From NCBI GenBank assembly GCA_963768165.1, contig CAVYHJ010000002.1, positions 195,283 through 259,282 on the forward strand: a stretch of 64,000 nucleotides of DNA, read 5' to 3'. Below the pieces are notes generated by a model, which was not told where the DNA came from, searched no databases, and saw nothing but the letters and a program-made list of their open reading frames with translations. Source of the DNA: an uncultured bacterium (GTDB lineage Bacteria; UBP4; UBA4092). This document shows, piece by piece, positions 11,017 through 38,261 of the stretch. Made by a program: the position numbers and the translations under genes. Every line of letters begins with the position of its first letter. Positions within the stretch are counted from its first letter, which is position 1.

Positions 11017-11237
11017 ATAAAAAACGCTCGAAAGGCACGTTCCCTTCGAGCGGTTATTGCCACCACTAAAAGCGCTATGTTAGAAACGTCCACTGTCTCT
11101 CCCACGCCTGCGGGGTTAGCTGTTGGGTTCGGGTTGAAAAGTAACCCTGCGCGTTTCCGCGATTCACCCCCTGACATCGGTTCCCCCGTCTCTTGCGAGC
11201 TCGGCGATCTTTCGTGGGATTCTTATTCCAAATTTAA
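11017..11237 (-). promoter_or_regulatory. Candidate c-di-AMP (ydaO/kimA-type) riboswitch leader, copy A, with intrinsic terminator
   Basis: Conserved core shared with three other copies (RNA sense ...GGGGGAACC...GGGGUGAAUC-CGCG-GAAA-CGCG-CAGGGUUACUUUUCAACCCGAACCC..CAGCUAACC..GCAGGCGUGGG); 3' hairpin CGCUCGAAGG/CUUUCGAGCG plus U-run at 11017-11055; extended -10 TGATATAAT at 11245-11253; start codon 10996 about 20 nt past the U-run. Confidence 0.6.
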
Positions 11238-11270
11238 CGGAATTATTATATCATACTTGGGGGGATTTGA

Positions 11271-11591
11271 ATGATGCATATAGACTTTACATATTTGTTC
11301 CGAATAGCCTGCATATCCACTGCGTTATGCTTCTTGTGTTATGAATATTATTATTTTAAGTGTTACTTTTATTTAAGAAAGCATTTTCTGGACTTTCGTT
11401 TACGATGGAATCGTCTGTATTTTGCATACTTAAATATGAAAAATTATCGGGATTATATGTTGGAAAAAGGAGTAACAGAGGAAACGACAACGTTAAAAAA
11501 GTATATTACAATACTTAGAATAAGTATTCTTTTAGGTGTGATTAGTTTGATTTTCGTGGTAGTATTTGGTCATTTAAGTCACCTAATTTAG
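11271..11591 (+). CDS. Small membrane protein, tandem paralog 1
   Basis: 106 aa, N-terminus MMHIDFTYLFRIA, TTETTTLK motif, two TM segments; paralog of the next gene. Confidence 0.4.
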   Translation: MMHIDFTYLFRIACISTALCFLCYEYYYFKCYFYLRKHFLDFRLRWNRLYFAYLNMKNYRDYMLEKGVTEETTTLKKYITILRISILLGVISLIFVVVFGHLSHLI

Positions 11592-11622
11592 CCAGACTCG
11601 TTTTGCTTTGGATGGTATTTGA

Positions 11623-11934
11623 ATGATGCATACTGTCTATACATATCTCTTCCGAATAGCCAGTGTATCCTTTGTGTGGTACTTATTACGTTATTTATAT
11701 GATGGTGTAGTGTTTACCTTTTATTTAAAGGAGCATTTTCATGACTTTGAAAAAAGATGGTTTAGTGGAAGTCGTGCTTACTTCAATACGAAAAGTTTTA
11801 GAGATTATATGTTTGAGTTTGACATTACCACAGAAACTACGACTTTAAAATGGCATCTTAAAAAAGTTAGAATAAGTTTTCTTTCATGTGTTGTTAGTTA
11901 TATTTTAGCGGTAGTATTTTATATTTTAAGATAG
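11623..11934 (+). CDS. Small membrane protein, tandem paralog 2
   Basis: 103 aa, MMHTVYTYLFRIA...TTETTTLK; same architecture as 11271..11591. Confidence 0.4.
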   Translation: MMHTVYTYLFRIASVSFVWYLLRYLYDGVVFTFYLKEHFHDFEKRWFSGSRAYFNTKSFRDYMFEFDITTETTTLKWHLKKVRISFLSCVVSYILAVVFYILR

Positions 11935-11986
11935 CTATATTAACCAGACCCGTTTTGCTTTGGTAATGAAGTCTTGTCGTATAATA

Positions 11987-12080
11987 GGGCTAAAGCCCTG
12001 AGAACCGTGCACTAAAGTGCCGTAGAAGAAACAATCCTTCTACCCTGCTTTAGCAGAGGGTTACTGGACTTTAGTCCAAA
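11987..12080. repeat. Interspersed double-hairpin palindromic repeat (family R1), copy 1
   Basis: Halves GGGCTAAAGCCC..GCACTAAAGTGCCGTAGAAGAA and CTTCTACCC..GCTTTAGC..GGACTTTAGTCC; same family at 14083-14186 and 25597-25686. Confidence 0.6.
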
Positions 12081-12183
12081 CCAACCCCATCCCCTCTTTT
12101 CCCCCTCCCGCCAGCGCCGGATAAACAGGTAATTTAAATAGGTGTATAATAACCCTCACTGAAATATTGAGGTATAGATAGAG

Positions 12184-12663
12184 ATGAAAAAAACAGTTTC
12201 AATAATTTTGAATATACTTTCTTTGCTATCAATGTTTTTCAGTATTTTATGGACTTTTGTAATGTCATTGTTGTTATTCCGATGTTTACTTTATCCTGTA
12301 AAGTTTTCTGTGCAAAAAGATTCCCTAACTAATGGAATTTTTTATCGTTTTGTAGCTGCATATCCTATCTCTTTTTGCTTGATTGGAATTATTGCATTTC
12401 TCGGCCAGTTAGTCGTGTCTTTTGGGGTTTTAAAAAGGTTTAAATGGGGACTGTATGGGGTAAGAATTATTCTATTTCTTTTTCTCATAGCTGATATAAT
12501 CTATGATTATAGCAATCTAACCTATATTGATATTAACATTGGATTGATTGTATTCTTGTTAATTTTCTTTTATCTCCCCATCGTCAAAAGCCTGTTTGAA
12601 AAGCAACCCCCGATTCCCAGCGAACCCACCCCCTCTTTCCCCCCTCCCGCCAGTGCCGGATAA
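12184..12663 (+). CDS. Polytopic membrane protein with Pro-rich C-terminal tail, tandem paralog 1
   Basis: 159 aa; C-terminus FLPIVKSLFEKQPPIPSEPTPSFPPPASAG nearly identical to next gene; 5' region (CCCTCCCGCCAG..TAATAACCCTCACTGAA..ATAGATAGAGATG) also duplicated. Confidence 0.45.
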   Translation: MKKTVSIILNILSLLSMFFSILWTFVMSLLLFRCLLYPVKFSVQKDSLTNGIFYRFVAAYPISFCLIGIIAFLGQLVVSFGVLKRFKWGLYGVRIILFLFLIADIIYDYSNLTYIDINIGLIVFLLIFFYLPIVKSLFEKQPPIPSEPTPSFPPPASAG

Positions 12664-12722
12664 ACAGGTTGTTTAAATAGATGTATAATAACCCTCACTG
12701 AACTATAGAGGAATAGATAGAG

Positions 12723-13268
12723 ATGAAAAAAGCTATAACCATAATAATGTACCTTCTCGCTGTCCTTTGTATCTTGTTCAGTGTGATAGGTCTTTATCAA
12801 GGAATATCCTTTTTATCTGTATTATTCTTTCTCCCAGATTCAGTTTGGTATGAAATAAAAAGCGTGGGGATTCACTCGTCCTCATCAGTCATACACACGC
12901 AGAGTGTCTTACAATGTTTTCTAGATATTATTTTTGGTATCATTCAGTTTTTTGGATTTATAGGGGTATTACAGAAAAAGAAATGGGGATTGTATTGTGT
13001 TCAGGTAGTCTTGATTACTAGTTTTATTGACTTGATTCTGACAATGATAGATTATTACTCGGTAATTCAACCGATGATGAAACAACAAGGGGGCAATGTT
13101 CATTTGTTGATAGGCGGAAATCAATGGAAATTTATAAGGGGATTTGTCTTGGAAATCATCCTCTTGGTTTTCTTTTTCCTCCCCATCGTCAAAAGCCTGT
13201 TTGAAAAGCAACCCCCGATTTCCAGCGAACCCGTCCCCTCTTTCCCCCCTCCCGCCAGCGTCGGATAA
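12723..13268 (+). CDS. Polytopic membrane protein with Pro-rich C-terminal tail, tandem paralog 2
   Basis: 181 aa; same conserved C-terminal tail and duplicated 5' region. Confidence 0.45.
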   Translation: MKKAITIIMYLLAVLCILFSVIGLYQGISFLSVLFFLPDSVWYEIKSVGIHSSSSVIHTQSVLQCFLDIIFGIIQFFGFIGVLQKKKWGLYCVQVVLITSFIDLILTMIDYYSVIQPMMKQQGGNVHLLIGGNQWKFIRGFVLEIILLVFFFLPIVKSLFEKQPPISSEPVPSFPPPASVG

Positions 13269-13303
13269 GCGAACTAATAGCGAATATGCACCGAACCAGA
13301 AGC

Positions 13304-13346
13304 GGAGCTGGTGTGGAGGTGAAAATTTCACCTCCACACCAGCTCC
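13304..13346. other. Perfect 19-bp-stem palindrome
   Basis: GGAGCTGGTGTGGAGGTGAAAATTTCACCTCCACACCAGCTCC between convergent genes. Confidence 0.6.
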
Positions 13347-13414
13347 ACTCCATATTCGGTTCAAAAAGAGTTTTGAAACATAGACCCGACCACCTTCTGC
13401 GTCCATATCCTCCC

Positions 13415-13442: not shown

Positions 13443-13460
13443 AGAGGAATAGGGGTGGTC

Positions 13461-14195: not shown

Positions 14196-14894
14196 TTATT
14201 CTTTGGCTCCGGCATCTTTCAGGAGTTTTACGATGTCGTCATATTTCTTATATGTCGCTATTGATAAGGCAGTTTTACCATCATTGGTTTTCGTATTGAT
14301 ATTGGCTCCTTTATCTAGCAAGGCTTTCATGGTATCCATACGACCACCACGAACCGCCCACATCAAAGCAGTATAACCAATAACATCTTTCGCATTGACC
14401 TCCGCGCCTTTCGCTAATAAGGCTTGTACGGTCTCGTTATGTCCTACAACTGCCGCATTCATCAAGGCGGTCATACCGTACTTGTTTTTCGCATTGACCT
14501 CCGCACCTTTCGCTAATAAAGCGTTCACGATATTCGTTTGGCCCCACCATGCCGCTGACATCAAGGCGGTGTTACCAAACTTATTTTTTACATTAACATC
14601 GGCTCCTTTCGCCAATAAAGCTTGCACGGTATCTGTATGACCATTTTCTTCTGCTAACATCAAAGCGGACACACCTGTACTATCTTTCACATTCGGGTTC
14701 ATCCCCGCATCCAAATATAATTTTATAACATCGGTTTTGCTATGTCCTGCACATTTAAAAAACTCATCTTCGCTATAGGTAATCTTCATTTGCGCCAGTT
14801 CATTACGCGCTTCTTGCGGGGTTTTGGCGAAGGAAGGGAATACCAGGAACAAAAATAGTACAAGAGAGAGACACGGTAATGGTTTCAATTTCAT
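14196..14894 (-). CDS. Secreted ankyrin-repeat protein
   Basis: Signal peptide then repeated TALM.AA..GH...V..LL.KGA.VNAK units; AAGGAG RBS. Confidence 0.8.
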   Translation of the reverse strand: MKLKPLPCLSLVLFLFLVFPSFAKTPQEARNELAQMKITYSEDEFFKCAGHSKTDVIKLYLDAGMNPNVKDSTGVSALMLAEENGHTDTVQALLAKGADVNVKNKFGNTALMSAAWWGQTNIVNALLAKGAEVNAKNKYGMTALMNAAVVGHNETVQALLAKGAEVNAKDVIGYTALMWAVRGGRMDTMKALLDKGANINTKTNDGKTALSIATYKKYDDIVKLLKDAGAKE

Positions 14895-14976
14895 TATAAT
14901 TGGTACTCCTTTTTCCTCTAGAATGTATGGCGTCGGGAAAAAGAAGAGCGTTTATTCCCGACGCAGTTTTATTCTG

Positions 14977-15783
14977 TTATTCTTTCGCCCCGGCACTCTT
15001 GAGGAGTTTTACGACGTCGGGATGGTTCTCTTTTGCCGCGTCCATCAAAGCAGTATGACCTTCATTATCTTTCGCATTGACTTGAGCACCTTTTTTTAAT
15101 AAGACTTTAACGGTCTCTGCATGACCTGTGACTGCCGCAAACATCAAGGCAGTCCTGCCATTATTGATTTTCGCATTGACTTCAGCACCTTCTTTTAATA
15201 AGACTTGCACAGTCTCCGTATGACCATTCACTGCCGCTAATATCAATGCGGTCACACCACCCTTGTTTTTTGCATTGACATCCGCCCCTTTTGCTAATAA
15301 GGTTTGAACGATCTTCGTATAACCAAACTCTGCCGCAAGCATCAAGGCGTTTTTACCTTGTTTAGTTATCGCATCAACTTTTGCCCCTTTTGCTAAAAGG
15401 GCTTGCAACGTATCTGTACGACCACTAAGTGCCGCCCATGTCAATGGGGTCCAGTCATCGTTTGATTTCGCATTAATATCAGCACCTTTCGCCAATAAGG
15501 CTTGTAGAGTCTCAATATTATTATGAAATGCCGCAGCCATCAAGGGGGTTCGACCATTATCGTCTTTCAAATTCGGATTCATCCCAGCATCTAAAAACAA
15601 TCTCACAGCGTCAGTTTTGCCGTGTTGTGCACAAAAGAGAAATTCATCTTCGCTATAGGTTATTTTCATTTGCGCCAGTTCATTGCGCGCTTCTTGCGGG
15701 GTTTTGGCGAAGGAGGGGAATACCAGAAACGAAAATAGTAAAAGAGAGAGGCTTAATAATGGATTGAATTTCATCATACTTGG
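14977..15783 (-). CDS. Secreted ankyrin-repeat protein (paralog)
   Basis: Start placed at internal MMKFNPLLSL (AAGGAG RBS) rather than the ORF-track start; same N-terminal FLVFPSFAKTPQEARNELAQMKITYSEDEF as neighbour; at least six ankyrin units. Confidence 0.8.
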   Translation of the reverse strand, partial: PSMMKFNPLLSLSLLLFSFLVFPSFAKTPQEARNELAQMKITYSEDEFLFCAQHGKTDAVRLFLDAGMNPNLKDDNGRTPLMAAAFHNNIETLQALLAKGADINAKSNDDWTPLTWAALSGRTDTLQALLAKGAKVDAITKQGKNALMLAAEFGYTKIVQTLLAKGADVNAKNKGGVTALILAAVNGHTETVQVLLKEGAEVNAKINNGRTALMFAAVTGHAETVKVLLKKGAQVNAKDNEGHTALMDAAKENHPDVVKLLKSAGAKE

Positions 15784-16064
15784 TACTCCTTTTTCCCAAA
15801 GAATGAGAGAGTTTTTTATTACCGATAGCATACTCCCTTCTAGAACCCAGAGTCAAGTTAAAGAGTGGAAGGAACGGGAGAAACGGAGAATGGGCGAGAG
15901 AGCGAAATAGAATCAGGAATGAAGGAAAAGGTCAAATATGTTACCTGCTCCAGCAAAGAGATACCCATTATTTTGCCTATAAATAGACAGGTAGAAAAGA
16001 GTTGAAAAGATAACAGATTGTGCTATAATTTTTCTTAGTCAAAAACGGTCGGGAGGACACTTCG

Positions 16065-25012: not shown

Positions 25013-25579
25013 TTATTTTTTAAGGACATCCAGTGCCATATTCAATTTTAATACATTGACAACCGGATCGCCGAACAACCCCAAGAGAGGTTTTTCGGTA
25101 TATTTTTGAACCAAATCAGTTACGACATCATCCTGCAAACTGCGAGATTTTGCAACTCTTGGCACTTGAAGCAAGGCGGCATCCAGACTTATATGGGGAT
25201 CGAGACCGCTGGCCGAGGATGTGACCAAGTCCACGGGAACAGGCGCATCGGGTGGCAAATTATTTTCCGCACGAACCGCGCGTGCCGTGGAATCAATCTG
25301 GCTAATCAATTTCTGGTTGGTGGGACCGAAATTGGTCGCATTGGAATTGGTGGCATCGAAATTAGCCGCCGAGGGACGCCCGTGGAAATATTCGGGTTTG
25401 GTGAAGGATTGTTCTATTAATTCGGAACCAACAACCTTGTTGTTCACTGTCGCCAGACTGCCATTGGCCTTGTGTGGGAAAAGTATCTGTGCGATTCCGG
25501 TCATTGCCAACGGGTATATCAACCCGGTGAGAATGGTGAATACGATTAAACTCAAGATGGAAATTTTTAACTGTTTCAT
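25013..25579 (-). CDS. kdpC: K+-transporting ATPase subunit KdpC (operon 1)
   Basis: 188 aa, N-terminal TM, conserved GRPSAANFD and SGLDPHIS segments. Confidence 0.85.
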   Translation of the reverse strand: MKQLKISILSLIVFTILTGLIYPLAMTGIAQILFPHKANGSLATVNNKVVGSELIEQSFTKPEYFHGRPSAANFDATNSNATNFGPTNQKLISQIDSTARAVRAENNLPPDAPVPVDLVTSSASGLDPHISLDAALLQVPRVAKSRSLQDDVVTDLVQKYTEKPLLGLFGDPVVNVLKLNMALDVLKK

Positions 25580-25702: not shown

Positions 25703-27739
25703 TTATGCCCAACCTAATACAACGATGAGCATGTCAATTAGTTTGATACCGATGAAGGGAAGAAGCACTCCGCCCAACCCATATACCAGTAAATTCATTT
25801 TCAAGAACGAGGAAACGGAAACGGCACGTAATTTGACGCCCCTCAATGCCAACGGGATTAAGAACAAAATAATAATCGCGTTGAAAATGACGGCGGACAA
25901 AATCGCACTCCCAGGATTATTTAACCTCATCACATTCAGAATATTCAACTGCGGATAAGCGACCGCAAACATTGCCGGAACGATGGCGAAATATTTCGAG
26001 ACATCGTTGGCAATACTAAAAGTAGTAAGCGCGCCACGCGTGATAAGGATTTGTTTTCCGACTTCCACAATATCGAGAAGTTTCGTGGGATTGGAATCCA
26101 AATCAATCATATTGGATGCTTCCCGCGCCACCTGCGTGCCTGCATTCATAGCGACCGCGACATCGGCTTGCGCGAGAGCGGGTGCGTCATTAGTCCCGTC
26201 TCCAATCATCGCGACAAGGTTACCGTCCTCTTGTGCCTTGCGAATTAATGCCAATTTGGTTTCGGGTTTGGCCTGAGCAACGAAATCATCCAGCCCGGCT
26301 TCCGCGGCAATCGAAGCAGCGGTGAGCGGGTTATCGCCGGTAATCATGGTGGATTTGATACCCATTTCACGGAGTTGCGCGAGACGAGCTTTAATGCCTT
26401 GTTTCAGAACGTCTTTGAGACGAATCACGCCAAGAACTCTTTTCCCGTCAGAAACGACCAAAGGCGTATTACCTTGTTTGGCGAACCCTTCCACGATGTC
26501 CTTGACTCCGGCAGGGATTGTGGCATTGGACTGTTTCAGAAATTCTTCAATCGCGTCCAAGGAACCCTTGCGGATTTTTTTGCCATCAATATCAATCCCG
26601 CTCATGCGTGTTTCGGGAGTGAAAGGTACGAACACGGCACCTTCGGGAGCACGGATATCGCTTCCCTTGATACCTTTTTCGGTTTTACAGAGGGTTACAA
26701 TACTTCTGCCTTCGGGAGTTTCATCGGATAGTGAGGATAACAAGGCACAGTCCACCAATTCTGCTTTTTCAACTCCAGCAGAAGGAACCAAATCGGTTGC
26801 CATACGATTGCCGAGAGTGATGGTACCCGTCTTATCGAGCAAGACGATATTGACATCGCCTGCCGCTTCTACCGCACGACCGCTCAGAGCGATGACGTTG
26901 TGTTGTAATAGTCTATCCATCCCTGCGATACCGATAGCGGGAAGTAAACCGCCAATGGTGGTCGGCATGAGGCATACCAAGAGAGAAATCAATATCGGGA
27001 CGGTGGTCGCGATACCCAAATAATTGGCATAGGTGGGCAGGACGATAACGACGATTAGGAACAACACTGTGATGCCGACAAGGAGAATTTCTAAAGCGAT
27101 TTCATTGGGTGTCTTTTGACGTTTCGCGCCTTCGACCATAGAAATCATGCTATCGAGGAATGTCTCACCGGCATTCGCCGTGATACGGATTTTGATATGT
27201 CCCGATAATAGTTTGGTTCCACCAGTCACGCCACTGCGGTCACCACCGGATTCCCGAATCACGGGAGCGGATTCACCAGTGATGGCAGATTCGTCCACAA
27301 GAGCGACGCCTTCGATAATTTCTCCATCACCGGGAATGACTTCCCCTTCAATAACCAGAATCAAATCGCCTTTGCGAAGATCCAAGGCGGATACTTTTTC
27401 TTTCGCTCCACTTTCCAATATTTTAAGAGCAAAGAGTTCGCTGCGTGCTTTCCGCAAAGATTCCGCACGTGCTTTCCCTTGAATTTCCGCCAAGGCTTCC
27501 GAGAAGGTGGCGAAAAGAACGGTCACCCAGAGCCAAAGGGTAATTTGCAAATTAAACCCGAAACTGGCATGATGGGTGATATTGATTACCGTGATGATAG
27601 TGGTAATCACAGCGCCGATTTCAACGACCAACATTACGAGATTGCGCCATAATAAAAAGGGATTTAATTTTTTAATAGCTTCCTGCAATCCCTTGAACAG
27701 AAAGTCCGCTTGAAATATACTTCGTTTCGTTTGTGCCAT
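25703..27739 (-). CDS. kdpB: K+-transporting P-type ATPase subunit KdpB (operon 1)
   Basis: P-type motifs [21 protein letters not shown]; 678 aa. Confidence 0.95.
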
Positions 27740-27806: not shown

Positions 27807-29507
27807 TTAAAATGTTTTTCCTTGCAACATGAATAAATGTTCCAACACGGGACCGAGGGTGAATGCCGGGAAATAGGTCAATGCGCCGACAATAAAGACT
27901 ACGCAAACCAGCATAGCGACAAATAACCAGCCGGTGGTTGGAAATGTAGCCAAACTGGTAGGAACAATCTTTTTCCTGACCAGTGCTCCGGCAATAGCCA
28001 GTCCTGGAATGAGGGTGGAAAATCGTCCAACCAACATGGTGGCGCCACCGGTTAAATTATAAAACACGGTATTGGCGTTAAGTCCGGCAAACGCGGAACC
28101 GTTATTCCCACCATAGGATAAAAAGGCATATAACACTTCCGACCAACCGTGGGCGGAGGGATTATTCATGCTGGACAATCCGGTGGCGGTAATCATAGCG
28201 AATGCCGCAAAGATTTTAAGAACAATGGGCGCTGCCAAAATTGCAATCACCGTCCAAATCATTTCATAAGGACCAAGTTTCTTGCCAAGATATTCAGGGG
28301 TACGTCCGATCATCAATCCAGCAATAAACATAGTGGCGAAGACATAGAAAAACATTCCGATGAGTCCGACACCCAATCCGCCGAAGATGACTTCCCCAGT
28401 GCATAAGTTAAACATATAGACTAGACCCGTGAGGGGGAGCATACTGTCGTGCATAGAGTTCACGGAGCCGTTGGAAGTGACGGTGGTCATGTGTCCCCAT
28501 GCAGCAGAATTGATAATCCCAAAACGGGCTTCTTTGCCTTCCATATTCCCCCCAACCAGATGCAACTTATCGAAAAAGGGGTTACCCTGGGTTTCGCTAT
28601 AGAATACTACGGCCAAACCTATAATAAATAGGGTTAACATGGAATAAAAGATGGCTTTGCCTTGACGGCTATCGCGTACCATAAAACCAAACATGAACAC
28701 TTGCGCGGTGGAAATGAAGAGAATTGCCATCATTTCAAAAATATTAGACAAGCCAGTGGCATTCTCAAAGGGATGCGCGGAGTTGACGTTGAAGAAACCG
28801 CCGCCATTAGTTCCCAACTGTTTAATGGCAATCTGTGAAGCTGCAGGACCAACGGCAATGGTTTGCGCACCGCCTTCCAATGTCTTTACTACCTCATACG
28901 GATGTAAGGTTTGAACGACACCTTGAGACACCAAAATGAGGGTAAGGATAATGCTCAATGGCAATAATATATATATTACAGAACGGGTCATATCCACCCA
29001 GTAATTGCCTATCTTGTCGGTATCTTTGCGAATAAATCCGCGAATCATGGCGACCATGACTGCCATCCCCATCGCGGGGGTAACGAAATTATGTACCGTG
29101 AGTCCCAGCATTTGGGTGAGATAACTCAGGGTACTTTCCCCGCCATACGCCTGCCAGTTGGTATTGGTGACAAAAGAGATGGCGGTATTTAATGCCAAAT
29201 CCCAACGGACGGCAGCGAATTTTTGCGGATTCAAAGGCAGATGCCCTTGAAGAAGCTGCAATAAAAATAAAGCGGCGAGAAATATTACATTGAACCAGAA
29301 TACCGCCCAGGCATAAGTTTTCCAGTTCATTTCTTCGGATTCATTGACGCCGCAGAGACGGTATATTCCACGCTCAAGAGGTTTTAAGAACCCGCTGAGA
29401 AATGTCCATTCTCCGTTATACACCCGGAACATATATTTCCCTGTCGGGATGGACAGGAAAAACATGATTGCCAAGGCAACAACAACTACAATCATATCTA
29501 TTAACAT
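27807..29507 (-). CDS. kdpA: K+-transporting ATPase subunit KdpA (operon 1)
   Basis: 566-aa polytopic protein with KdpA-typical GTNGGGFF selectivity-filter-like motifs. Confidence 0.9.
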   Translation of the reverse strand: MLIDMIVVVVALAIMFFLSIPTGKYMFRVYNGEWTFLSGFLKPLERGIYRLCGVNESEEMNWKTYAWAVFWFNVIFLAALFLLQLLQGHLPLNPQKFAAVRWDLALNTAISFVTNTNWQAYGGESTLSYLTQMLGLTVHNFVTPAMGMAVMVAMIRGFIRKDTDKIGNYWVDMTRSVIYILLPLSIILTLILVSQGVVQTLHPYEVVKTLEGGAQTIAVGPAASQIAIKQLGTNGGGFFNVNSAHPFENATGLSNIFEMMAILFISTAQVFMFGFMVRDSRQGKAIFYSMLTLFIIGLAVVFYSETQGNPFFDKLHLVGGNMEGKEARFGIINSAAWGHMTTVTSNGSVNSMHDSMLPLTGLVYMFNLCTGEVIFGGLGVGLIGMFFYVFATMFIAGLMIGRTPEYLGKKLGPYEMIWTVIAILAAPIVLKIFAAFAMITATGLSSMNNPSAHGWSEVLYAFLSYGGNNGSAFAGLNANTVFYNLTGGATMLVGRFSTLIPGLAIAGALVRKKIVPTSLATFPTTGWLFVAMLVCVVFIVGALTYFPAFTLGPVLEHLFMLQGKTF

Positions 29508-29737
29508 AAATTTCCTTTCTTTTGTAATTTAGGCTTTTACTTTATACAACAGCCTGAATTTTACTACTATTCAAAAATCAATTCAACTGTTTTCCTTTTA
29601 CATGGTACCCTCCATTAAAAAATTGGCTTTTGAAAATATTAGATTACACTTTTGCTCAATTTAAACAATCTTAAAATTGCAAAGAATTGTGTTACTACAA
29701 CTGATAAATAATAAAAAGAAGTTAGGTGGAGGGTTCA

Positions 29738-29896
29738 TAAATAAAAAACCCACTCACTCTTCCACGCCTACGAGGTTAGCTGACGGGCTCGGGTTGAAAA
29801 GTAACCCTACGCTTTCGCGATTAGCCCCAACTTCCGGTTCCCCCGTATCTTTCGAATTCGGCGAACTTAAGTGGTAATACTGCTATATTTTTCTAC
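29738..29896 (-). promoter_or_regulatory. Candidate c-di-AMP (ydaO/kimA-type) riboswitch leader, copy B
   Basis: Same conserved core as copies A, C, D; internal GNRA-capped hairpin CGC-GAAA-GCG; 3' tail GAGUGAGUGGGUUUUUUAU. Confidence 0.6.
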
Positions 29897-29903
29897 TAGT
29901 ATT

Positions 29904-29932
29904 ATTATCGGATATTTTCAAGAAAATGTCAA
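29904..29932 (-). promoter_or_regulatory. Sigma70-type promoter candidate for leader B
   Basis: Minus-strand TTGACA (29927-29932), 17-nt spacer, GATAAT (29904-29909). Confidence 0.4.
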
Positions 29933-30074: not shown

Positions 30075-30114
30075 AAAAACAATAGGAATCCTACCTTTTC
30101 AAGGCAGGATTCCT
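30075..30114 (-). terminator. Intrinsic terminator downstream of kdpC (operon 2)
   Basis: Hairpin GGAATCCTGCC/GGTAGGATTCC followed by U-run on the minus-strand transcript. Confidence 0.55.
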
Positions 30115-30140
30115 ACAAAAGCAACCACTTTAGGAATATA

Positions 30141-30716
30141 TTATTTGGCAGAAGATTGAACTTGATCCAATGCGATATTTAACTTCAAGACATTGACGCC
30201 CGGATCACCAAGGAAGCCCAAAGTTCGAGAATCGGTATTTTTCTGGATCAGATCTTGTACCGTTGCCTCATCCATTTTTCGAGCTTTAGCAACCCTTGGA
30301 ACTTGAAATAAGGCAGCCTCCAGGCTTATATGGGGATCCAAACCACTGGCGGACCCTGTGACCAAGTCTACTGGCACTAGTGCATCTGCGGGCAGGTTAT
30401 TTTCCTGTCGAATAACATTCGCAGTAGAATCAATTTGACTAATAAGTTTTTGGTTGGTGGGTCCCAAGTTAGACCCGGTGGAATTCCCACCATCAAAATT
30501 CGCCGGAGATGGCCGCCCATGAAAATACTCCGGTTTGGTAAAAGATTGTTCGATTAATTCAGAACCAACCGTTTTCCCATTCACCTGTATTAGACTGCCA
30601 TTGGCTTTATATGGGAATAAAACCTGACAGATGCCTGTCATCATCAAGGGATAAAATAACCCTGTTAAGATTGAAAAAACTACAAAGGTTGTGATCGATC
30701 TTGTTAAATCTTTCAT
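30141..30716 (-). CDS. kdpC: K+-transporting ATPase subunit KdpC (operon 2)
   Basis: 191 aa, paralog of 25013..25579. Confidence 0.85.
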   Translation of the reverse strand: MKDLTRSITTFVVFSILTGLFYPLMMTGICQVLFPYKANGSLIQVNGKTVGSELIEQSFTKPEYFHGRPSPANFDGGNSTGSNLGPTNQKLISQIDSTANVIRQENNLPADALVPVDLVTGSASGLDPHISLEAALFQVPRVAKARKMDEATVQDLIQKNTDSRTLGFLGDPGVNVLKLNIALDQVQSSAK

Positions 30717-30729: not shown

Positions 30730-32793
30730 TTAAGCCCAACCTAAAGATACAATGAGCATGTCTATGAGTTTAATACCGATAAATGGTAATATCACACCAC
30801 CCAACCCATAAATTAACAAGTTTCTCTTCAAGAAAGCAGAAACTGTAGTGAGTCGTAACTTGACCCCTTTCAATGCCAAAGGAACCAAACAAAGAATGAT
30901 AATGGCATTGAAGATAACAGCAGACAAAATCGCACTGTATGGGTTTGACAACCCCATCACGTTTAATATATTCAACTGTGGATAGGTAATTGCAAACATA
31001 GCCGGTATGATGGCGAAATACTTGGATACATCATTGGCTATGCTGAACGTGGTTAAAGCTCCACGGGTAATGAGAATTTGTTTACCCACTTCAACGATAT
31101 CCAATAGTTTGGTGGGATTGGAATCCAAATCCACCATATTGGAGGCTTCCCGTGCCACTTGAGTTCCGGCATTCATTGCTACCGCTACATCGGCTTGAGC
31201 CAGGGCAGGAGCATCATTGGTCCCATCCCCAATCATAGCGACCAAGTTCCCATCGGACTGATATTTGCGTATCAACTGTAATTTGGTTTCCGGTTTGGCT
31301 TGCGCTACAAAATCATCCAATCCAGCTTCTGCGGCAATAGACGAAGCAGTTAATGGATTGTCACCGGTAATCATAATCGACTTAATCCCCATCTCTCGTA
31401 GTTGTGCCAACCTGGCTTTGATACCTTGCTTTAATACATCTTTTAACCGGATGACCCCTATGATCTTTTTGCTATTTGCTACAACCAAAGGAGTATCGCC
31501 TTGTTTCGCAAATTCTTCGACTTTGTTTCTCACATCACTAGGGATACTGAAATGAGATGGGCGTATAAATTCTTCGATGGCATCAAGCGCTCCTTTTCGA
31601 ATCATTTTTCCATCAATATCTATTCCACTCATCCTGGATTCAGGTGTAAAAGGAACAAAAACCGCACCTTCGGGAGCCCGGATATCACTTCCTCTAATCC
31701 CTTTTTCAGTTTTACACAATGTTACTATGCTTCTTCCTTCCGGTGTTTCATCTGAAAGTGAAGATAATAAAGCGCATTCGGTCATTTCTTTTTTATCTAT
31801 CCCTGCCGCCGGGATCAATTCAGTCGCCATGCGGTTTCCTAGGGTGATCGTCCCGGTCTTATCCAACAGAACCACATTGACATCACCGGAAGCTTCTACG
31901 GCACGACCGCTAAGGGCGATCACATTGTGTTGCAATAATCTATCCATGCCAGCAATACCAATAGCCGGAAGTAATCCTCCGATCGTGGTGGGCATTAAGC
32001 AAACCAATAAGGAGATTAAGATTGGAATGGTAGTAACGATTCCCATATAACTGGCATAAGCGGGAAGGGTTACGACGACAATCACGAACAATACGGTTAT
32101 ACCAATCAGCATGATCTCCAAAGCGATTTCGCCGGGTGTTTTTTGCCGTTTCGCACTTTCCACCATTTTAATCATGCCATCCAGAAATGTTTCTCCAGGA
32201 TTGGCAGTAATTTTGATTTTGACTTTTCCAGAGATTAATTTTGTTCCTCCGGTTACCCCACTCCGGTCTCCTCCAGATTCTCGAATAACCGGAGCTGATT
32301 CTCCTGTTATGGCCGATTCATCGATTAAGGCAACACCTTCAACTATTTCACCATCTCCAGGAATTACATCTCCATCAGCGACTAAAATTATGTCGCCTTT
32401 GCGAAGAGACAGGGCAGATACAGTCTCTATGCTACCATTGTCCAACAATTTTTGGGCAGACAATTCGCTTCTGGCACGGCGTAAAGATTCAGCACGAGCT
32501 TTTCCCTGAATTTCAGCCAAGGCTTCCGAAAAGGTTGAGAAAATAACAGTAAACCACAACCAGAGGGAAATCTGTAAATTAAAGGAGAAACTGGTGTGAT
32601 GGGCAATACTGACGATGGTTACTACAGTAGTAACCATCGCGCCGATCTCCACAACCAGCATGACAATATTTCTCCATAGTGTAAAAGGATTTAATTTTAT
32701 TATGGATTCTTTCAATCCTTGTAACAAGAAATCCGCTTGAAATAGGTTTTGTTTTTTTTGTGTCATATGCAATCTCCTTATGCGTTGGGTCAT
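30730..32793 (-). CDS. kdpB: K+-transporting P-type ATPase subunit KdpB (operon 2)
   Basis: [17 protein letters not shown]; paralog of 25703..27739. Confidence 0.95.
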
Positions 32794-32811: not shown

Positions 32812-34560
32812 CTAAAAAGTTTTTCCTTGCAACATAAATAAATGTTCCAATACAGGTCCTAGTGTAAACGCCGGAAAATACGTTAAGGCACCCACAATGA
32901 ATATTACACAGACTAACATGACAACAAACAACCAACCAGTGGTAGGAAAAGTGGCTGTACTTGTAGGAACAATCTTTTTCTGTACTAGTGAACCGGCAAC
33001 AGCCAGTCCCGGTATTAAGGTGGCGAACCGACCTACTAGTATGGTGACTGATCCTGTGAGGTTATAAAATAAGGTGTTAGCGTTAAGACCCGCAAAAGCA
33101 GAACCATTATTACCACCAAAGGATAAATAGGCATAGAGTATTTCTGACCAGCCATGTGCTGAGGGATTATTTAAGCTGGATAATCCTGTCGGTGTAATAA
33201 TGGCAATCGCTGAAAATATTTTGAGTATGATAGGCGCTGCCAGAATTGCAACCACCGTCCAAATCATTTCATAAACTCCTAATTTTTTACCCAGATACTC
33301 AGGAGTTCGTCCTATCATCAACCCGGCTATGAACATGGTGGTAAATACATAAAACAAAACACCAACCGTTCCTATGCCGACACCGCCGAAAATTACTTCT
33401 CCGGTACCCATAAAGAACATATAAACCAAACCGGTGAGCGGGAGCATACTGTCATGCATGGAATTAATCGAACCATTGGCTGTTCCTGTTACCAATCCTC
33501 CCCACACAGCGGAGTTTATAATCCCACAGCGAGTTTCCTTGCCTTCCATATTCCCGCCCACAACGTGTAATTTAGCAAACAAAGGATTCCCTTGCGTTTC
33601 TGTATATACACAAATGATTAACCCAATCACTAAGAGAATCAACATGGAATAAAAGATGGATCGGCCCTGACGAACATCTTTGACCATATATCCAAAGGTA
33701 AAAACAGGTGCACTGACCAAAAGGATAATCGCCATCATTTCCAAAAACATAGTCAACCCGTTTGGATCTTCAAAAGGATGTGAGGAATTCGTGTTGAAGA
33801 AACCTCCGCCATTGGTACCCAACTGTTTAATAGAAATTTGTGAGGCTACAGGACCCATGGCAATGGTCTGAGACCCGCCTTCCAAAGTTTTCACAGTTAC
33901 ATAAGGATGTAAGTTTTGAATAACACCCTGGGATCCCAATATCAATCCTAAAACAATACTTAATGGAATTAACACGTAAAGAATCGACCGGGTCAAGTCC
34001 ACCCAATAGTTACCAATAAAATTGGTATCTTTGCGTATAAATCCCCGGGTCAGAGCAACCAATACTGCTAAAGCTATGGCAGGAGAGACAAAATTATGCA
34101 CAGTCATACCTAGCATTTGGGTAAGATAACTCATGGTGGTTTCTCCCCCATAAGCCTGCCAGTTGGTATTGGTGATAAAGGAGATAGCTGTATTTAATGC
34201 CAGGTCCCATTTCAACCCCGGCAATTTTTGTGGATTCAGAGGAAGATAACCCTGAACCAGTTGTAAGACAAACAAAGTTATCAAAAAGATAACATTTGAC
34301 CAAACAAATGCCCAAGCATAGGTTTTCCAATTCATCTCCTCATCTTCATTAATGAAACAAACCCGGTAGATTCCTTTTTCCAATGGCCGGAATACCGGGG
34401 AAAGAAATGTTCTTTTCCCTTCGTATACATGAGCCATGAATTTCCCTATTGGGATGGACAGGAGTAATGTAACGATTAAACCAATTGTGACTACAAGTAT
34501 ATCTATCATATTAATTATCCTTTCTTCAAAAGATGGTCTTTCATTAATCTCATTAATCAA
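32812..34560 (-). CDS. kdpA: K+-transporting ATPase subunit KdpA (operon 2)
   Basis: Paralog of 27807..29507; alternative start at 34509 (MIDILVV, GAAAGGA RBS) is plausible. Confidence 0.9.
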   Translation of the reverse strand: MINEINERPSFEERIINMIDILVVTIGLIVTLLLSIPIGKFMAHVYEGKRTFLSPVFRPLEKGIYRVCFINEDEEMNWKTYAWAFVWSNVIFLITLFVLQLVQGYLPLNPQKLPGLKWDLALNTAISFITNTNWQAYGGETTMSYLTQMLGMTVHNFVSPAIALAVLVALTRGFIRKDTNFIGNYWVDLTRSILYVLIPLSIVLGLILGSQGVIQNLHPYVTVKTLEGGSQTIAMGPVASQISIKQLGTNGGGFFNTNSSHPFEDPNGLTMFLEMMAIILLVSAPVFTFGYMVKDVRQGRSIFYSMLILLVIGLIICVYTETQGNPLFAKLHVVGGNMEGKETRCGIINSAVWGGLVTGTANGSINSMHDSMLPLTGLVYMFFMGTGEVIFGGVGIGTVGVLFYVFTTMFIAGLMIGRTPEYLGKKLGVYEMIWTVVAILAAPIILKIFSAIAIITPTGLSSLNNPSAHGWSEILYAYLSFGGNNGSAFAGLNANTLFYNLTGSVTILVGRFATLIPGLAVAGSLVQKKIVPTSTATFPTTGWLFVVMLVCVIFIVGALTYFPAFTLGPVLEHLFMLQGKTF

Positions 34561-34714
34561 CAGTGAAATTAAAATTCTTTTCTAAATGCCAACCCATTGG
34601 ACCGTCATAATTCCTCTTCATCTCCTCCTAAAATTTCTCCTGACGAATCATGGTCACCAGGAGATAGACTATTAAAATCACAGTTATAAAACCTGCAATT
34701 AAATCCCCATAGGC

Positions 34715-34807
34715 TTACTGGTCCTCCAGTTTCTCTAATGCTTTGATACAGACAAAGCAAAGGGCTATAATAATCACAGCTATGGCAATGACTTGCAAAT
34801 CACTCAT
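34715..34807 (-). CDS. kdpF: KdpF-like small hydrophobic peptide (30 aa)
   Basis: MSDLQVIAIAVIIIALCFVCIKALEKLEDQ; AGGAGGG RBS 8 nt upstream; sits between the P-II gene and kdpA; not in the ORF track because it is short. Confidence 0.5.
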   Translation of the reverse strand: MSDLQVIAIAVIIIALCFVCIKALEKLEDQ

Positions 34808-34819: not shown

Positions 34820-35179
34820 CTACAAAAATGAAACTGCGCATTCATCCGTTTCTCCGGTACGAATACGAACGGCTCTTTCGATTGGAAACACATAAATTCT
34901 GTCATTGGAGACTTTGCCATTACGCGCGGCAAACATCATGGTTTCCACAATCCGGTCGGTTTGTTCTCGGGGAACAACCACTTCAACTTTCAATTTGGGC
35001 AGAAAATCCATAATATACTCCACTCCCCGATAAACTTCTTTATGCCCTTTTTCCGTCCCACAGACTTGAACTTCTGTCACGGTGATGCCTTGAACTCCAA
35101 GGGCCTGAAGCGCGTCTTTCACATCATCCAACTTATACGGTTTAATGATGCATTCAATTTTGTTTAACATATTTAACAT
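34820..35179 (-). CDS. P-II (GlnB/GlnK-like) signal-transduction protein, first gene of kdp operon 2
   Basis: KIECIIKPYKLDDVKDAL...GITVTEV...EVYRGVEY...FLPKLKVEVVVP...RIRTGE aligns with GlnB; T-loop and GDGKIF-like B-loop are diverged; AGGAGG RBS. Confidence 0.75.
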   Translation of the reverse strand: MLNMLNKIECIIKPYKLDDVKDALQALGVQGITVTEVQVCGTEKGHKEVYRGVEYIMDFLPKLKVEVVVPREQTDRIVETMMFAARNGKVSNDRIYVFPIERAVRIRTGETDECAVSFL

Positions 35180-35427
35180 GTTTCTTTAACCTCCTATGTA
35201 GCAAGTTAATCTCGATTCAAATATTTTTTAATTAGCAAAGTGCGGAGCCGGAAACTTAAGGAGGAAACCGGCTCCGCGATTAGCCCATATAACACAATTC
35301 AAAAATATGGGTTAACTTTTAAATTCTAATTACATCATCCGATACATGTATTTGGACTTAAACCAAAATTAACGTCATGTATCTATAACGATGAATCAAT
35401 TATTTAGGAAGTTAATGGGGTGGGGTT

Positions 35428-35590
35428 TCAATAAAAAACCCACTCACTCTTCCACGCCTGCGAGGTTAGCTGACGGGCTCGGGTTGAAAAGTAACCCTAC
35501 ACCTTGCGGTGATTCGCCCCAACTTTCGGTTCCCCCGCCTTTTTCAAGCTCGGCGAACTTAAGTGGTACTATTAAAATTCTATGTTATTT
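35428..35590 (-). promoter_or_regulatory. Candidate c-di-AMP (ydaO/kimA-type) riboswitch leader, copy C
   Basis: Conserved core; internal hairpin CACC-GCAA-GGUG covaries with GCGC-GCAA-GCGC (D), CGC-GAAA-GCG (B) and CGCG-GAAA-CGCG (A). Confidence 0.6.
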
Positions 35591-35760
35591 TACTTATATA
35601 AAAATAACGCATATCCCATACCAGTTATAATGAATTCTAAAGGTTTTCAACAACTCAAATATTTTCAATATTTTACAATTAAATCTGTAAAAACCATTCG
35701 GTAAACTTATGACATAAATGTCATTTAGAACTGCGAAACATTGTCATAATTATGACATTT

Positions 35761-35976: not shown

Positions 35977-36001
35977 AGGATTCTCCTTAGTCTTTATTGC
36001 T

Positions 36002-36220
36002 TTAGTACATCAGGAACTTTTGACGGAGTTCCTGGCGCAATTTTTTTAATTGCAATTCGATATTACTTAATGTTTCGACGCCCAATTCGCCATCCTTTTG
36101 AAAACCGTGATTATGTTCCAGCGCCTTTAGAAATCTCTGCAATTCCATAATCTGGAGGCGTAATATACTCGCTCTGAAATCTTTCATTCGACTCATATTT
36201 ATGCCTATTTGAACTCTCAT
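36002..36220 (-). CDS. Small helical protein, paralog a
   Basis: 72 aa; start overlaps the stop of the upstream P-II gene (ATGA). Confidence 0.4.
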   Translation of the reverse strand: MRVQIGINMSRMKDFRASILRLQIMELQRFLKALEHNHGFQKDGELGVETLSNIELQLKKLRQELRQKFLMY

Positions 36221-36558
36221 ACAGCGCTTTCAGACAGTTCTCCAGTTCGAATCCGAACAGCCATATCAATGGGAATCACAATAATCTTAATGTTGGAGAT
36301 ATGATTATTACGCAAGGTTGAAGTAATCGTATCTACAGCCCTGGAGACCATTTCTTCAGGGAGCACTAACTCGATTTTCACCTTAAGTAAATAATCAACG
36401 TTGAACTCTACTCCACGATAAACTTCAGTAGGTTTAATTTCTCGATTAGAAACTTTAACCTCCGTGGCCGCCAATCCGTGAATACCAATATCAAGGAGGG
36501 CTTCTTTCACTTCCTCCACTAGACTGGGTTTGATAATGCACTCGATTTTTTGTAACAT
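36217..36558 (-). CDS. Divergent P-II-like protein (paralog 2)
   Basis: MLQKIECIIKP...ATEVKV...EVYRGVEF...KVKIELVLP...RIRTGE; GlnB-like fold signature with altered T-loop. Confidence 0.6.
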   Translation of the reverse strand: MLQKIECIIKPSLVEEVKEALLDIGIHGLAATEVKVSNREIKPTEVYRGVEFNVDYLLKVKIELVLPEEMVSRAVDTITSTLRNNHISNIKIIVIPIDMAVRIRTGELSESAV

Positions 36559-36686
36559 GGTTATTTACCTCCTCATAAATTTTTTATTTTGTGTTCTCAA
36601 TCGTTTTCATTTCATTGGGACGCCGGATTGGGTGATGTGAATCCGGCGCCCATTAATCCCCCAATAAATATAGTGGATAGCTTGTA

Positions 36687-37028
36687 CTAAGCCGCTTTCG
36701 GATACCATTTTTGGGGATATTGTTCACTTACAACCATTACCGGGACCACATAAAAGTTTCCCTTTGTTTTACCATCAACACAAATAATACGAGTGATGGT
36801 CTCAATCACCCTGTTTACCAGATGTTGGGAAACGATAGTTTCGATTTTGGTGTATGCCTGGAACTCCAACTTGTATTGGATACCCCTATAGGATAAGGTC
36901 GGGCTATTAACCGGATCATACACTTTGGCATCAGAAAGTGTAATCTCATCAATACCCATACCCTTTAGGGCTTCAGTGACTCCACCCAATTTATAGGATT
37001 TGATGGTGCATTCGATTTTTTGAAACAT
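36687..37028 (-). CDS. Divergent P-II-like protein (paralog 3)
   Basis: MFQKIECTIKSYKL...SYRGIQY...TKIETIVS; weaker GlnB-like pattern, C-terminal RxR motif absent. Confidence 0.5.
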   Translation of the reverse strand: MFQKIECTIKSYKLGGVTEALKGMGIDEITLSDAKVYDPVNSPTLSYRGIQYKLEFQAYTKIETIVSQHLVNRVIETITRIICVDGKTKGNFYVVPVMVVSEQYPQKWYPKAA

Positions 37029-37049
37029 GTTACGAACCTCCTTTAAGGT

Positions 37050-37304
37050 TTAATTGATGAATTTGTTTAATTTTTTGTGATATTCAATTGATTTATTATG
37101 TTTCTGAAAATAAGCTTGTACCGTAATCACATAAATGCCACAAACCAATATGGAAAGGATAAAAAACCCCAGAAAAAAACACTGGTCGGCATTGAACCCT
37201 AAAAATGACCAAGGCTGGCTTTGAGCAACAGTATCTGTACTCATCTCACTCCATACTTTTTGTACGAGAGGAGCAATAGCTTGAATTGTATAATTAAAAG
37301 TCAT
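37050..37304 (-). CDS. Small membrane protein
   Basis: 84 aa with one TM segment; between the M23 peptidase and P-II paralog 3. Confidence 0.35.
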   Translation of the reverse strand: MTFNYTIQAIAPLVQKVWSEMSTDTVAQSQPWSFLGFNADQCFFLGFFILSILVCGIYVITVQAYFQKHNKSIEYHKKLNKFIN

Positions 37305-37363
37305 CGTTGAAACTCCTTATAACGTCATTTCATTGGAGGACTCTAAAAATCCATCCAAAAGAA

Positions 37364-37912
37364 TTAAAGTAAATATTTCATAGGATTCACAGGTACTCCA
37401 TTTAGCCGAATTTCAAAATGGACATGCGGTCCTGTGGCAAGTCCGGTACTGCCCACCAAGGCAATGACCTGTCCGCGTTCCACCCCTTGACCCACTTGGA
37501 CTAGAACACTGGAACAATGCCCATATAAAGTAATAAAATCATTGTCATGTTGGATAATGACGCATTTCCCTAAAAGCCCATGCCATCCGGCACCTACCAC
37601 ACGCCCGGATTGCGATGCGCAAATAATGGTTCCATGCTCTGCGGCAATATCTATTCCACTATGAAACCGGATTCCCCCCTCGATAGGATGATGGCGATAA
37701 CCAAACCCAGACGTTATAAGCCCATCTACCGGCCAGACAAAACCAAGTTTTTCATCAGGCACGGAACCGTTAAAATATTGATTGACATTCCTATTATTCA
37801 TCTCAGGTGCCTGCGCATAACTCCAATTGGCGATAATTCCAGGTATCACCAAAAGCAACATAATACCTGTCATCCGTTTTTTATAGAGTTGTTTCCATAA
37901 CCGTTTCATCAT
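37364..37912 (-). CDS. Secreted M23 family metallopeptidase
   Basis: HxxxD-type HSGIDIA and HVHFE motifs; start set at MMKRLW (AGGAG RBS, signal peptide) rather than the ORF-track start 38023. Confidence 0.8.
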   Translation of the reverse strand: MMKRLWKQLYKKRMTGIMLLLVIPGIIANWSYAQAPEMNNRNVNQYFNGSVPDEKLGFVWPVDGLITSGFGYRHHPIEGGIRFHSGIDIAAEHGTIICASQSGRVVGAGWHGLLGKCVIIQHDNDFITLYGHCSSVLVQVGQGVERGQVIALVGSTGLATGPHVHFEIRLNGVPVNPMKYLL

Positions 37913-38097
37913 TTTTCTCCTAACTTTTTGACGAGCAGAGCCGGACTGGTGGCAATCCGACCCTGCTCTAACCCCGCTCATACAATTCAAAATACGGGAT
38001 ATCTTTAAATCCTTAAAAAACACCTATAAGGATTATTTCCAATACATACTGTACAAAAAATGATTAAATTGGTTTAGGAAGTAAAATGGGAGGGTTA

Positions 38098-38261
38098 TAA
38101 ATAAAAAACCCACTCACTCTTCCACGCCTGCGAGGTTAGCTGACGGGCTCGGGTTGAAAAGTAACCCGGCGCTTGCGCGCTTCGCCCCTACTTCTTGGTT
38201 CCCCCGCCTCTTACGAGCTCGGCGAACTTAAGTGGTGCTAAGTTCTTGATTTAATTTTCTA
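38098..38261 (-). promoter_or_regulatory. Candidate c-di-AMP (ydaO/kimA-type) riboswitch leader, copy D
   Basis: Conserved core with GCGC-GCAA-GCGC hairpin; 3' tail GAGUGAGUGGGUUUUUUAU; M23 peptidase gene downstream. Confidence 0.6.

Follow-up and report, generated by a model that had tools for sequence, protein, structure and literature searches.

Riboswitches of the ydaO/yuaA class, which respond to cyclic di-adenosine monophosphate (c-di-AMP), are represented in Bacillus subtilis by the kimA and ktrA leaders and have been crystallised (structures 4QLM and 4QLN). Their usual design is to switch genes OFF through an intrinsic terminator, and in Streptomyces the cell-wall hydrolase gene rpfA is controlled by a c-di-AMP riboswitch. 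Here we analysed a stretch of 64,000 nucleotides from an uncultured bacterium of the GTDB lineage UBP4/UBA4092 (assembly GCA_963768165.1, contig CAVYHJ010000002.1, positions 195,283 to 259,282 of the forward strand), henceforth referred to as the window. An earlier note, made by a model from the DNA letters alone, had pointed to four repeated minus-strand elements in it (copies A, B, C and D) as candidate c-di-AMP riboswitches in front of genes related to potassium.

Several described systems bear on this locus. In Bacillus thuringiensis BMB171, a c-di-AMP riboswitch terminates kdpFABC transcription at a terminator 143 bp before the start codon, and riboswitch-controlled kdp operons are always accompanied by a truncated KdpD, without KdpE; such operons were found essentially in the B. 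cereus group only (PMC6488665). In Dehalobacter, c-di-AMP promotes termination in a tandem riboswitch system (PMC9337991), while in Corynebacterium glutamicum a c-di-AMP riboswitch lies upstream of the cell-wall hydrolase gene nlpC (PMC9960051).

Family membership of the four aptamers

We searched the whole window with cmscan against Rfam 15 at gathering thresholds (a score of 38 for RF00379, the ydaO-class model). Exactly four matches exceeded the threshold; each was to RF00379, lay on the minus strand and fell inside one of the intervals given by the earlier note, meaning that the repeated elements are real and that their candidate identity held up in this Infernal check. Each match covered model positions 1-134, with E-values from 2e-20 to 8e-23 and scores of 92.0-101.0 bits, i.e., 2.4-2.7 times the gathering score in all four copies. 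A permissive E-value scan of the window revealed no fifth copy of RF00379 (its sole extra hit was a chance microRNA-like hairpin), and searching the long leaders of the riboswitches for other Rfam families found none. We consider it very probable that A-D are genuine ydaO-class c-di-AMP riboswitches, located in the (in part internal) 5' leaders of four minus-strand units that c-di-AMP would switch OFF; we infer both ligand sensing and the OFF direction from the established behaviour of the family.

Every helix of the family model is present in all four aptamers. The covarying, GNRA-capped hairpin that had been described from the sequence was likewise recovered, with stems CGCG/CGCG in A, CGC/GCG in B, CACC/GGUG in C and GCGC/GCGC in D. 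Using RNAalifold on eight copies, we obtained the helices of the family with 32 pairs, 5 of which carried compensatory changes, in what is a small sample of related copies. In the crystallised aptamer, a pseudoknot joins the P7 loop (CUCCUUCG) to the 3' tail (CGAAGGAG) (PMC5393176). At the corresponding positions in the window, the P7 loop UUACUUUUC is complementary to the 3' tail GAAGAGUGA (9 bp, -8.8 kcal/mol), and one metagenomic copy (L7_2) keeps this pairing via G-U changes.

The 46-nt core that the earlier note called near-identical is exact in C and D, with one mismatch in B and four in A, but most of it is simply the core common to the ydaO class: the crystallised Thermoanaerobacter aptamer (sequence printed in PMC5393176) contains the stretch ACCCGAGCCCGUCAGCUAACCUCGCA without a change. 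As this is the universal ligand-binding core, its near-identity gives no reason to suppose that the copies were duplicated recently. Overall identity is 88-90% among B, C and D and 78-82% between these copies and A, and the differences between the four copies are concentrated in the peripheral hairpins. Scans of GTDB representative genomes with a core pattern and with a 5'-flank pattern gave no match for either, which indicates that these representatives include neither the source species nor close relatives of it.

Could the elements instead be repeated promoter, terminator or repetitive extragenic palindromic (REP)-like DNA, or ydaO-like RNAs with a changed ligand specificity? B-D do share flanks beyond the limits of the Rfam model, and copies shift position between relatives. 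However, the full-model scores come with compensatory changes, the ligand-contacting core is almost identical to that of the crystallised c-di-AMP aptamer (PMC5393176), and typical ydaO-class genes always follow downstream on the same strand, which makes such an origin close to negligible in our estimate. The window copies thus resemble the known class in their full-length match, their helices, the pseudoknot between P7 loop and 3' tail, the near-identical ligand core and the classes of genes they precede. They differ from it in that the host is probably not a Firmicute, an Actinobacterium or a cyanobacterium, and in that B-D have a U-tract abutting the aptamer and an alternative hairpin, with no separate terminator hairpin.

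Expression platforms of copy A and of copies B-D

Copy A carries the clear intrinsic terminator that had been read from its sequence. Our terminator scan located it 40 nt downstream of the aptamer and about 20 nt before the start codon of the transporter gene (coordinates of all features are given in Table 1), where it would serve as a classical OFF signal downstream of the c-di-AMP-bound aptamer. By contrast, the terminator scanner found no canonical terminator hairpin next to the aptamers of B-D, which rely on a different platform.

We examined this platform in eight copies (B-D and five metagenomic relatives). In 8/8 copies, the pseudoknot 3' strand runs into GUGG, which pairs with a 5' CCAC to form an outer helix (CCACUUA/UGAGUGG in the RNAalifold consensus). 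The 3' strand is directly followed by a U-tract (GUUUUUUAUU; U6 in seven copies, U4 in one), and the bases beyond it diverge. The same 3' strand (GGAAGAGUGAGUGGG) can also pair with a downstream C/U-rich strand (..CCCxCCAC..ACUUCC), forming a hairpin, H1, that holds the U-tract in its loop. H1 was predicted in all eight copies, with free energies (dG) of -12.7 to -18.5 kcal/mol and z-scores (z) of -2.1 to -4.4; these values come from per-sequence folds, the MAFFT alignment of the H1 regions being too irregular for pair counting. B-D and the five relatives share a compact, lineage-specific platform.

Our preferred reading is that c-di-AMP binding locks the pseudoknot and the outer helix (CCAC(UUA)/(UGA)GUGG), and that the locked aptamer and the U-tract together would act as a terminator or pause, leaving the downstream genes OFF. 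Without ligand, the C/U-rich strand would capture the 3' strand in H1 and commit the transcript to ON; with ligand bound, it would be free and may provide a second level of repression, either by occluding the ribosome-binding site or by loading Rho. The cell would cease to synthesise K+ importers and the peptidase once c-di-AMP signals sufficient K+ and turgor.

A number of points weigh against this picture. The outer helix of B-D already appears in the minimum-free-energy fold without a ligand term, so a terminator composed of this helix and U6 might be constitutive; it might also fail to terminate, because the domain enclosed by the helix measures 120 nt. Termination at the U-tract also comes too early for H1 to prevent it, since H1 can form only once that tract has been transcribed. 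Pairing between the C/U-rich strand and a ribosome-binding site exceeds chance only for C and for a mini-ORF (open reading frame) in the leader of B. In addition, no c-di-AMP cyclase gene was found within the window, and orthologues of the copy A transporter that are 64-69% identical to it have no riboswitch.

An alternative OFF mechanism, which we regard as possible though somewhat doubtful, is that B-D do not terminate at the U-tract at all: ligand would free the C/U-rich strand (..CCCUCC..ACUUCC) for pairing with the ribosome-binding site and/or for Rho loading, while without ligand H1 would hide it. Specifically, UUAACUUCCUA in the strand of copy C can pair with the ribosome-binding site of the P-II gene (UAGGAGGUUAA; -13.6 kcal/mol, matched by 2/300 shuffles and 1/36 other start regions), and the strand of copy B can pair with the GGAGGGU site of the mini-ORF (-15.2 kcal/mol, 1/300 shuffles), but the pairing is not above chance for D or for the relatives L7_1 and L16_1, and in B-D some 190-240 nt separate the strand from the ribosome-binding site. 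As to Rho, the 70 nt past the U-tract are C-rich and G-poor (C/G of 1.2-4.1 vs. 0.7 in copy A), the untranslated leader of about 190-260 nt is a possible loading region, and the host looks Gram-negative (its closest named homologues are Acidobacteriota), Rho-dependent riboswitches being common in Gram-negative bacteria. Despite variation in the sequence and spacing of its 3' strand, the structure of H1 is moreover conserved, which fits this alternative; what it leaves unexplained is the conservation of GGGUUUUUUAUU in seven of the eight copies while the adjacent loop bases drift.

The opposite logic, by which H1 terminates in the absence of ligand and c-di-AMP blocks H1 to permit read-through, is suggested by the fact that the 5' strand of H1 also belongs to the aptamer, as in the pbuE and fluoride riboswitches, known ON designs that share an aptamer strand. 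In copy B, H1 is indeed followed by UUUUUAUUAUUU, but this is the only U-run: in C, D, L7_2 and L16_1, A-rich or mixed sequence without a U-tract comes after H1. To our knowledge, there is no example of an ON c-di-AMP riboswitch, and a rise in c-di-AMP that induced a high-affinity K+ importer would run counter to the established physiology of this messenger. Given also that c-di-AMP riboswitches switch OFF both in B. thuringiensis kdp (PMC6488665) and in Dehalobacter (PMC9337991), we think it very unlikely that B-D are ON switches.

The sigma70-like promoters reported upstream of B and D fared differently. The site of B scores 11/12, whereas that of D can be read in the sequence yet fails the rule of the promoter scanner; for copy C we found no convincing promoter.

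The long leaders hold further elements. Upstream of kdpA-1 there is a start-stop mini-ORF (a ribosome-binding site followed by AUG-UAA, 29598-29613, minus strand) and a small hairpin AGGCU...AGCCU (about 29525-29550), both of which are kept in the orthologous leader of L002 (about 808-826 and about 855-880). Two more hairpins lie in the D leader (37925-37965 and 38010-38040, minus strand), with their structure kept in L016 (about 95-125 and about 150-205): one has an A/U-rich stem (AAUCCUUA...UAAGGAUU), and the other, located just before the ribosome-binding site of the M23 gene, is a very stable 16-bp G+C-rich hairpin that has another sequence in L016. A hairpin of similar strength (z -4.1) is found in the C leader, at about 35240-35280.

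Genes downstream of the riboswitches

The K+ and cell-wall gene context, which the earlier note had called classic for the ydaO class, was borne out by Pfam, NCBIfam and fold comparisons: it consists of a KimA-like transporter (A), two kdp operons (B and C) and an M23 peptidase (D), and each riboswitch lies in a leader on the strand of these genes.

The proteins of the two kdp operons are 72-83% identical, meaning that the duplication is not recent. The KdpD-like protein encoded after kdp-1 has neither a HisKA nor a HATPase_c domain according to the domain search; it stops just before the position of the H-box, the next gene being on the opposite strand, and its score against NF038185 ('KdpD-like non-kinase') is 360.8 bits, short of the cut-off of 550. 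We also looked in it for the c-di-AMP-binding USP motif of Staphylococcus aureus (SxS-X20-FTAxY), which is absent, the nearest sequence being SPS-X21-FAVYV. In Escherichia coli, the N-terminal domain of KdpD is reported to act as a serine kinase on KdpB (PMC11018627). As this domain is kept here and both KdpB paralogues retain the TGES motif, post-translational control of Kdp may persist without a histidine kinase.

This arrangement resembles kdpFABC of B. thuringiensis (PMC6488665) in having a riboswitch before kdp, a truncated KdpD, no adjacent KdpE and a long spacer between platform and start codon. Unlike in B. thuringiensis, where KdpD is reduced to its N-terminal domain (365 aa), the KdpD-like protein of the window keeps Usp, the transmembrane region and GAF within its 659 aa, and the window has a riboswitch for each of two kdp operons, one of which additionally carries a P-II gene and an ORF for a 30-aa peptide. 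The presence of this hydrophobic peptide in both the window and L014 suggests that it may be a small membrane protein, missing from annotations, that forms part of the Kdp complex or is a partner of it. Next to it, the kdpF-like ORF has an ATG (34710-34708) that is one base out of frame (ATGGGGATTTAA), its own frame running on from the TAA of the 30-aa ORF, while the L014 orthologue has a normal start (MSDLIAG...). An independent Logan contig (L001) is identical in sequence at this place. The pattern suggests the gain or loss of a single nucleotide in a G-run, from mutation, pseudogene formation or an error in sequencing.

The P-II protein linked to kdp-2 matches PF00543 at 3.6e-24 and shows 52% identity to E. 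coli GlnB; Tyr51 of the T-loop and the RIRTGE motif are both retained, yet the protein falls below the NCBIfam equivalog cut-offs (136 vs. 202 bits). The canonical GlnB/GlnK B-loop TGxxGDGKIF and Q39 were not found in it: the nucleotide-binding B-loop is GK(V/I)SNDRI (GKVSNDRI in this protein) where GlnB has GKIGDGKI, and position 39 holds E in place of Q, with both changes the same in three genomes (the window, P0002 and L014). Homologues that are no more than 62% identical are of the ordinary glnB type and adjoin glnA, so the kdp link is confined to a small P-II subfamily. Unlike GlnB and GlnK, whose genomic partners are glnA or amtB, this P-II has kdp as its partner. PII-like proteins that bind c-di-AMP are known (PstA/DarA and SbtB); the P-II proteins of the window lie outside the PstA and SbtB families. 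The papers returned by a full-text literature search do not, judging by their titles and abstracts, deal with a link between P-II and kdp. We hypothesise that P-II regulates Kdp. More broadly, a GlnB-derived P-II subfamily with an SNDR B-loop, always directly upstream of kdp(F)ABC, might represent a new post-translational regulator or sensor of Kdp, coupled with an undescribed B-D platform in which ligand-locked pseudoknot, closing helix and U-tract form a terminator backed by a 'lock-open' hairpin; this combined proposal is tentative and, taken together, unlikely.

Copy D precedes a string of genes that begins with the M23 peptidase, whose true start is probably the methionine of MMKRLW at 37912, and orthologous strings of this type occur in L002, L014 and L016. 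As with nlpC and rpfA, a c-di-AMP riboswitch here stands before a secreted peptidoglycan hydrolase; unlike in those systems, the enzyme is an M23 metallopeptidase, and P-II paralogues and kdp are part of the same string. In three genomes, the kdp-linked P-II gene is directly preceded by the two small ORFs (64 and 71 aa) found at the end of this string, which are kept at the amino-acid level. Between the last of them and riboswitch C there are two palindromes (35742-35757 and 35709-35724; TGTCATAATTATGACA and ATGACATTTATGTCAT) that share ATGACA/TGTCAT half-sites and could be operator sites of a transcription factor.

Copy A precedes the gene for a 777-aa transporter to which a USP (universal stress protein)-like tail had been ascribed; no Pfam model detects USP in the 250-residue tail, even at E<=1. 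Nor were there any sequence homologues in the PDB at E<=1, either with phmmer or with a 25-sequence profile. Its AlphaFold model, built from the 25-member alignment, has a predicted local distance difference test (pLDDT) score of 65 overall and of about 75-86 in the tail, with an alternating beta/alpha pattern. The top Foldseek matches of this model were KimA structures (6S3K, 8B70 and 8B71; E 4e-12 to 1e-11, probability 1.00, about 700 aligned columns), among them the c-di-AMP-bound form of KimA (8B70), although the template-modelling scores were only 0.38-0.40 when normalised to the query and 0.52 when normalised to the target; cation-chloride cotransporters (NCC/KCC/NKCC) ranked after KimA. 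Like B. subtilis KimA (6S3K, 8B70), the protein would combine a membrane domain of APC fold with a cytoplasmic C-terminal domain, and like kimA its gene has a c-di-AMP riboswitch upstream; unlike KimA, to which it is only 15% identical, it is about 170 residues longer, at the model pLDDT given above. Since KimA is the product of ydaO itself, a role in K+ transport is plausible on the fold alone, making the protein a plausible candidate for a KimA-like K+ importer. As no homology to KimA was found at the sequence level, we term it 'KimA-like by fold' and do not count it as a member of that family. Its closest named homologues are from Blastocatellia/Acidobacteriota (64-66% identity), which places the host only loosely. 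We rejected the idea that the riboswitch is ancestral to the transporter gene, three orthologous loci (L010-L012; 65-69% identity) having none. About 200 nt downstream of this gene lies a gene for a PilZ-domain protein (c-di-GMP receptor fold; 8084-8464, minus strand).

Elsewhere in the window, and unrelated to the riboswitches, we noted three tandem GH44 glycoside hydrolase genes beside a DDE transposase, as well as two adjacent ankyrin-repeat proteins (48952-55965, 56015-57274 and 14196-15831, all minus strand).

Table 1. Positions of riboswitch elements and associated genes (window numbering unless a relative is named)
Feature	Position	Strand	Details
Riboswitch A aptamer (RF00379)	11090-11216	-	92.4 bits, E 2e-20
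Riboswitch B aptamer (RF00379)	29750-29873	-	94.0 bits, E 7e-21
Riboswitch C aptamer (RF00379)	35440-35565	-	101.0 bits, E 8e-23; between two small ORFs and P-II gene
Riboswitch D aptamer (RF00379)	38110-38234	-	92.0 bits, E 2.5e-20
Copy A intrinsic terminator	11015-11052	-	11-bp stem (11052-11025), 6-nt loop, T6; terminator scan and fold
Copy A candidate sigma-70 promoter	11242-11271	-	TTCAAA-18-AATAAT; also TATAAT 11250-11245; consensus match only
Copy B platform	29718-29763	-	3' strand GGAAGAGUGAGUGG; U6 29748-29743; C/U-rich strand AACCCUCCACCUAACUUC 29735-29718; H1 dG -12.7, z -2.5
Copy C platform	35407-35453	-	3' strand; U6 35438-35433; C/U-rich strand; H1 dG -16.5, z -3.95
Copy D platform	38077-38123	-	3' strand; U6 38108-38103; C/U-rich strand; H1 dG -14.2, z -3.3
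Copy B promoter-like site	29904-29932	-	TTGACA-17-GATAAT, 11/12
Copy D candidate promoter	38267-38297	-	TTGACA (38297-38292), 17 nt, TATATA; or 19 nt, TATAAT; direct reading
APC-superfamily transporter	8663-10996	-	777 aa; cytoplasmic alpha/beta C-terminal domain; PF13520 at 6e-48
KdpD-like protein	23023-25002	-	659 aa; KdpD N-terminal, Usp, DUF4118 and GAF_3 domains
kdpC1	25013-25579	-	kdp-1 unit
kdpB1	25703-27739	-	kdp-1 unit
kdpA1	27807-29507	-	First kdp gene downstream of riboswitch B
Strong terminator	30082-30116	-	16-bp stem and T-run; closes kdp-2 unit ahead of copy B promoter
kdpC2	30141-30716	-	kdp-2 unit
kdpB2	30730-32793	-	kdp-2 unit
kdpA2	32812-34509	-	kdp-2 unit
kdpF-like ORF	34628-34714	-	Without in-frame ATG
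30-aa hydrophobic membrane peptide ORF (MSDLQVIAIAVIIIALCFVCIKALEKLEDQ)	34715-34807	-	Between P-II and kdpF; kept in L014 (13337-13429)
P-II gene	34820-35179	-	First gene after riboswitch C
Small ORF, 71 aa	35761-35976	-	D string; no Pfam match
Small ORF, 64 aa	36002-36196	-	D string; no Pfam match
P-II paralogue	36217-36558	-	D string
Divergent P-II	36687-37028	-	D string
Membrane protein, 84 aa	37050-37304	-	After M23 peptidase
M23 peptidase	37364-37912	-	Coordinates from MMKRLW start
Counterparts of the two small ORFs in L002	23-217 and 243-425		
Counterparts of the two small ORFs in L014	12527-12757 and 12783-12968		

Riboswitches in series within one gene string

The high density of riboswitches is real, but the special island that the earlier note saw in it is better described as a trait of the lineage. 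The density is linked to the duplication of kdp together with riboswitch copies within a single co-directional gene string, and the association with riboswitches is conserved in the metagenomic relatives L007, L014, L015 and L016. Specifically, the order is riboswitch, M23, riboswitch in L007 and L016, and riboswitch, M23 in L015, while L014 has M23, a small membrane protein, a riboswitch, a porin-like gene, the two small ORFs, P-II, the 30-aa peptide, kdpF and kdpABC. In L002, whose Kdp proteins are 89-92% identical to those of kdp-1, the small ORFs are followed by P-II, kdpABC and the KdpD-like gene with no riboswitch in between. The recurrence of riboswitch-M23-riboswitch and riboswitch-...-P-II-kdpABC strings indicates a lineage trait, and the relatives together show that riboswitch copies change position within a conserved M23/P-II/kdp gene string.

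Between the D string and riboswitch C, which follows it, we detected neither a terminator nor a convincing promoter, and in L007 and L016 the second riboswitch begins 25-80 nt past the stop codon of the M23 gene. The position of C inside the D string and the riboswitch-M23-riboswitch order of the relatives imply that distal genes would pass two c-di-AMP checkpoints. Judging by this layout, the P-II and kdp genes would need read-through of both gates and the M23 gene of one. Two independent riboswitch checkpoints on one transcript are also found in the Na+ and c-di-AMP logic gate of Dehalobacter (PMC9337991); unlike there, the checkpoints of the window would sense the same ligand and are separated by at least one gene, so that proximal and distal genes should differ in the stringency of their response.

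A-D add members to a known riboswitch class in its classic gene context, a core result that is textbook and largely expected, and the findings leave current understanding intact. Within that frame, they carry the experimentally established link between c-di-AMP riboswitches and kdp, which Wang et al. 2019 (PMC6488665) had found essentially in the B. cereus group only, into a lineage that seems to be related to Acidobacteriota, and the window repeats the rule from B. thuringiensis that the riboswitch accompanies a kinase-less KdpD. The compact platform with a U-tract abutting the aptamer is a testable lead, as is the P-II subfamily with an altered ATP loop that is genetically tied to Kdp and to c-di-AMP control. 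Finally, checkpoints for the same ligand placed in series along one gene string should give graded, position-dependent repression.

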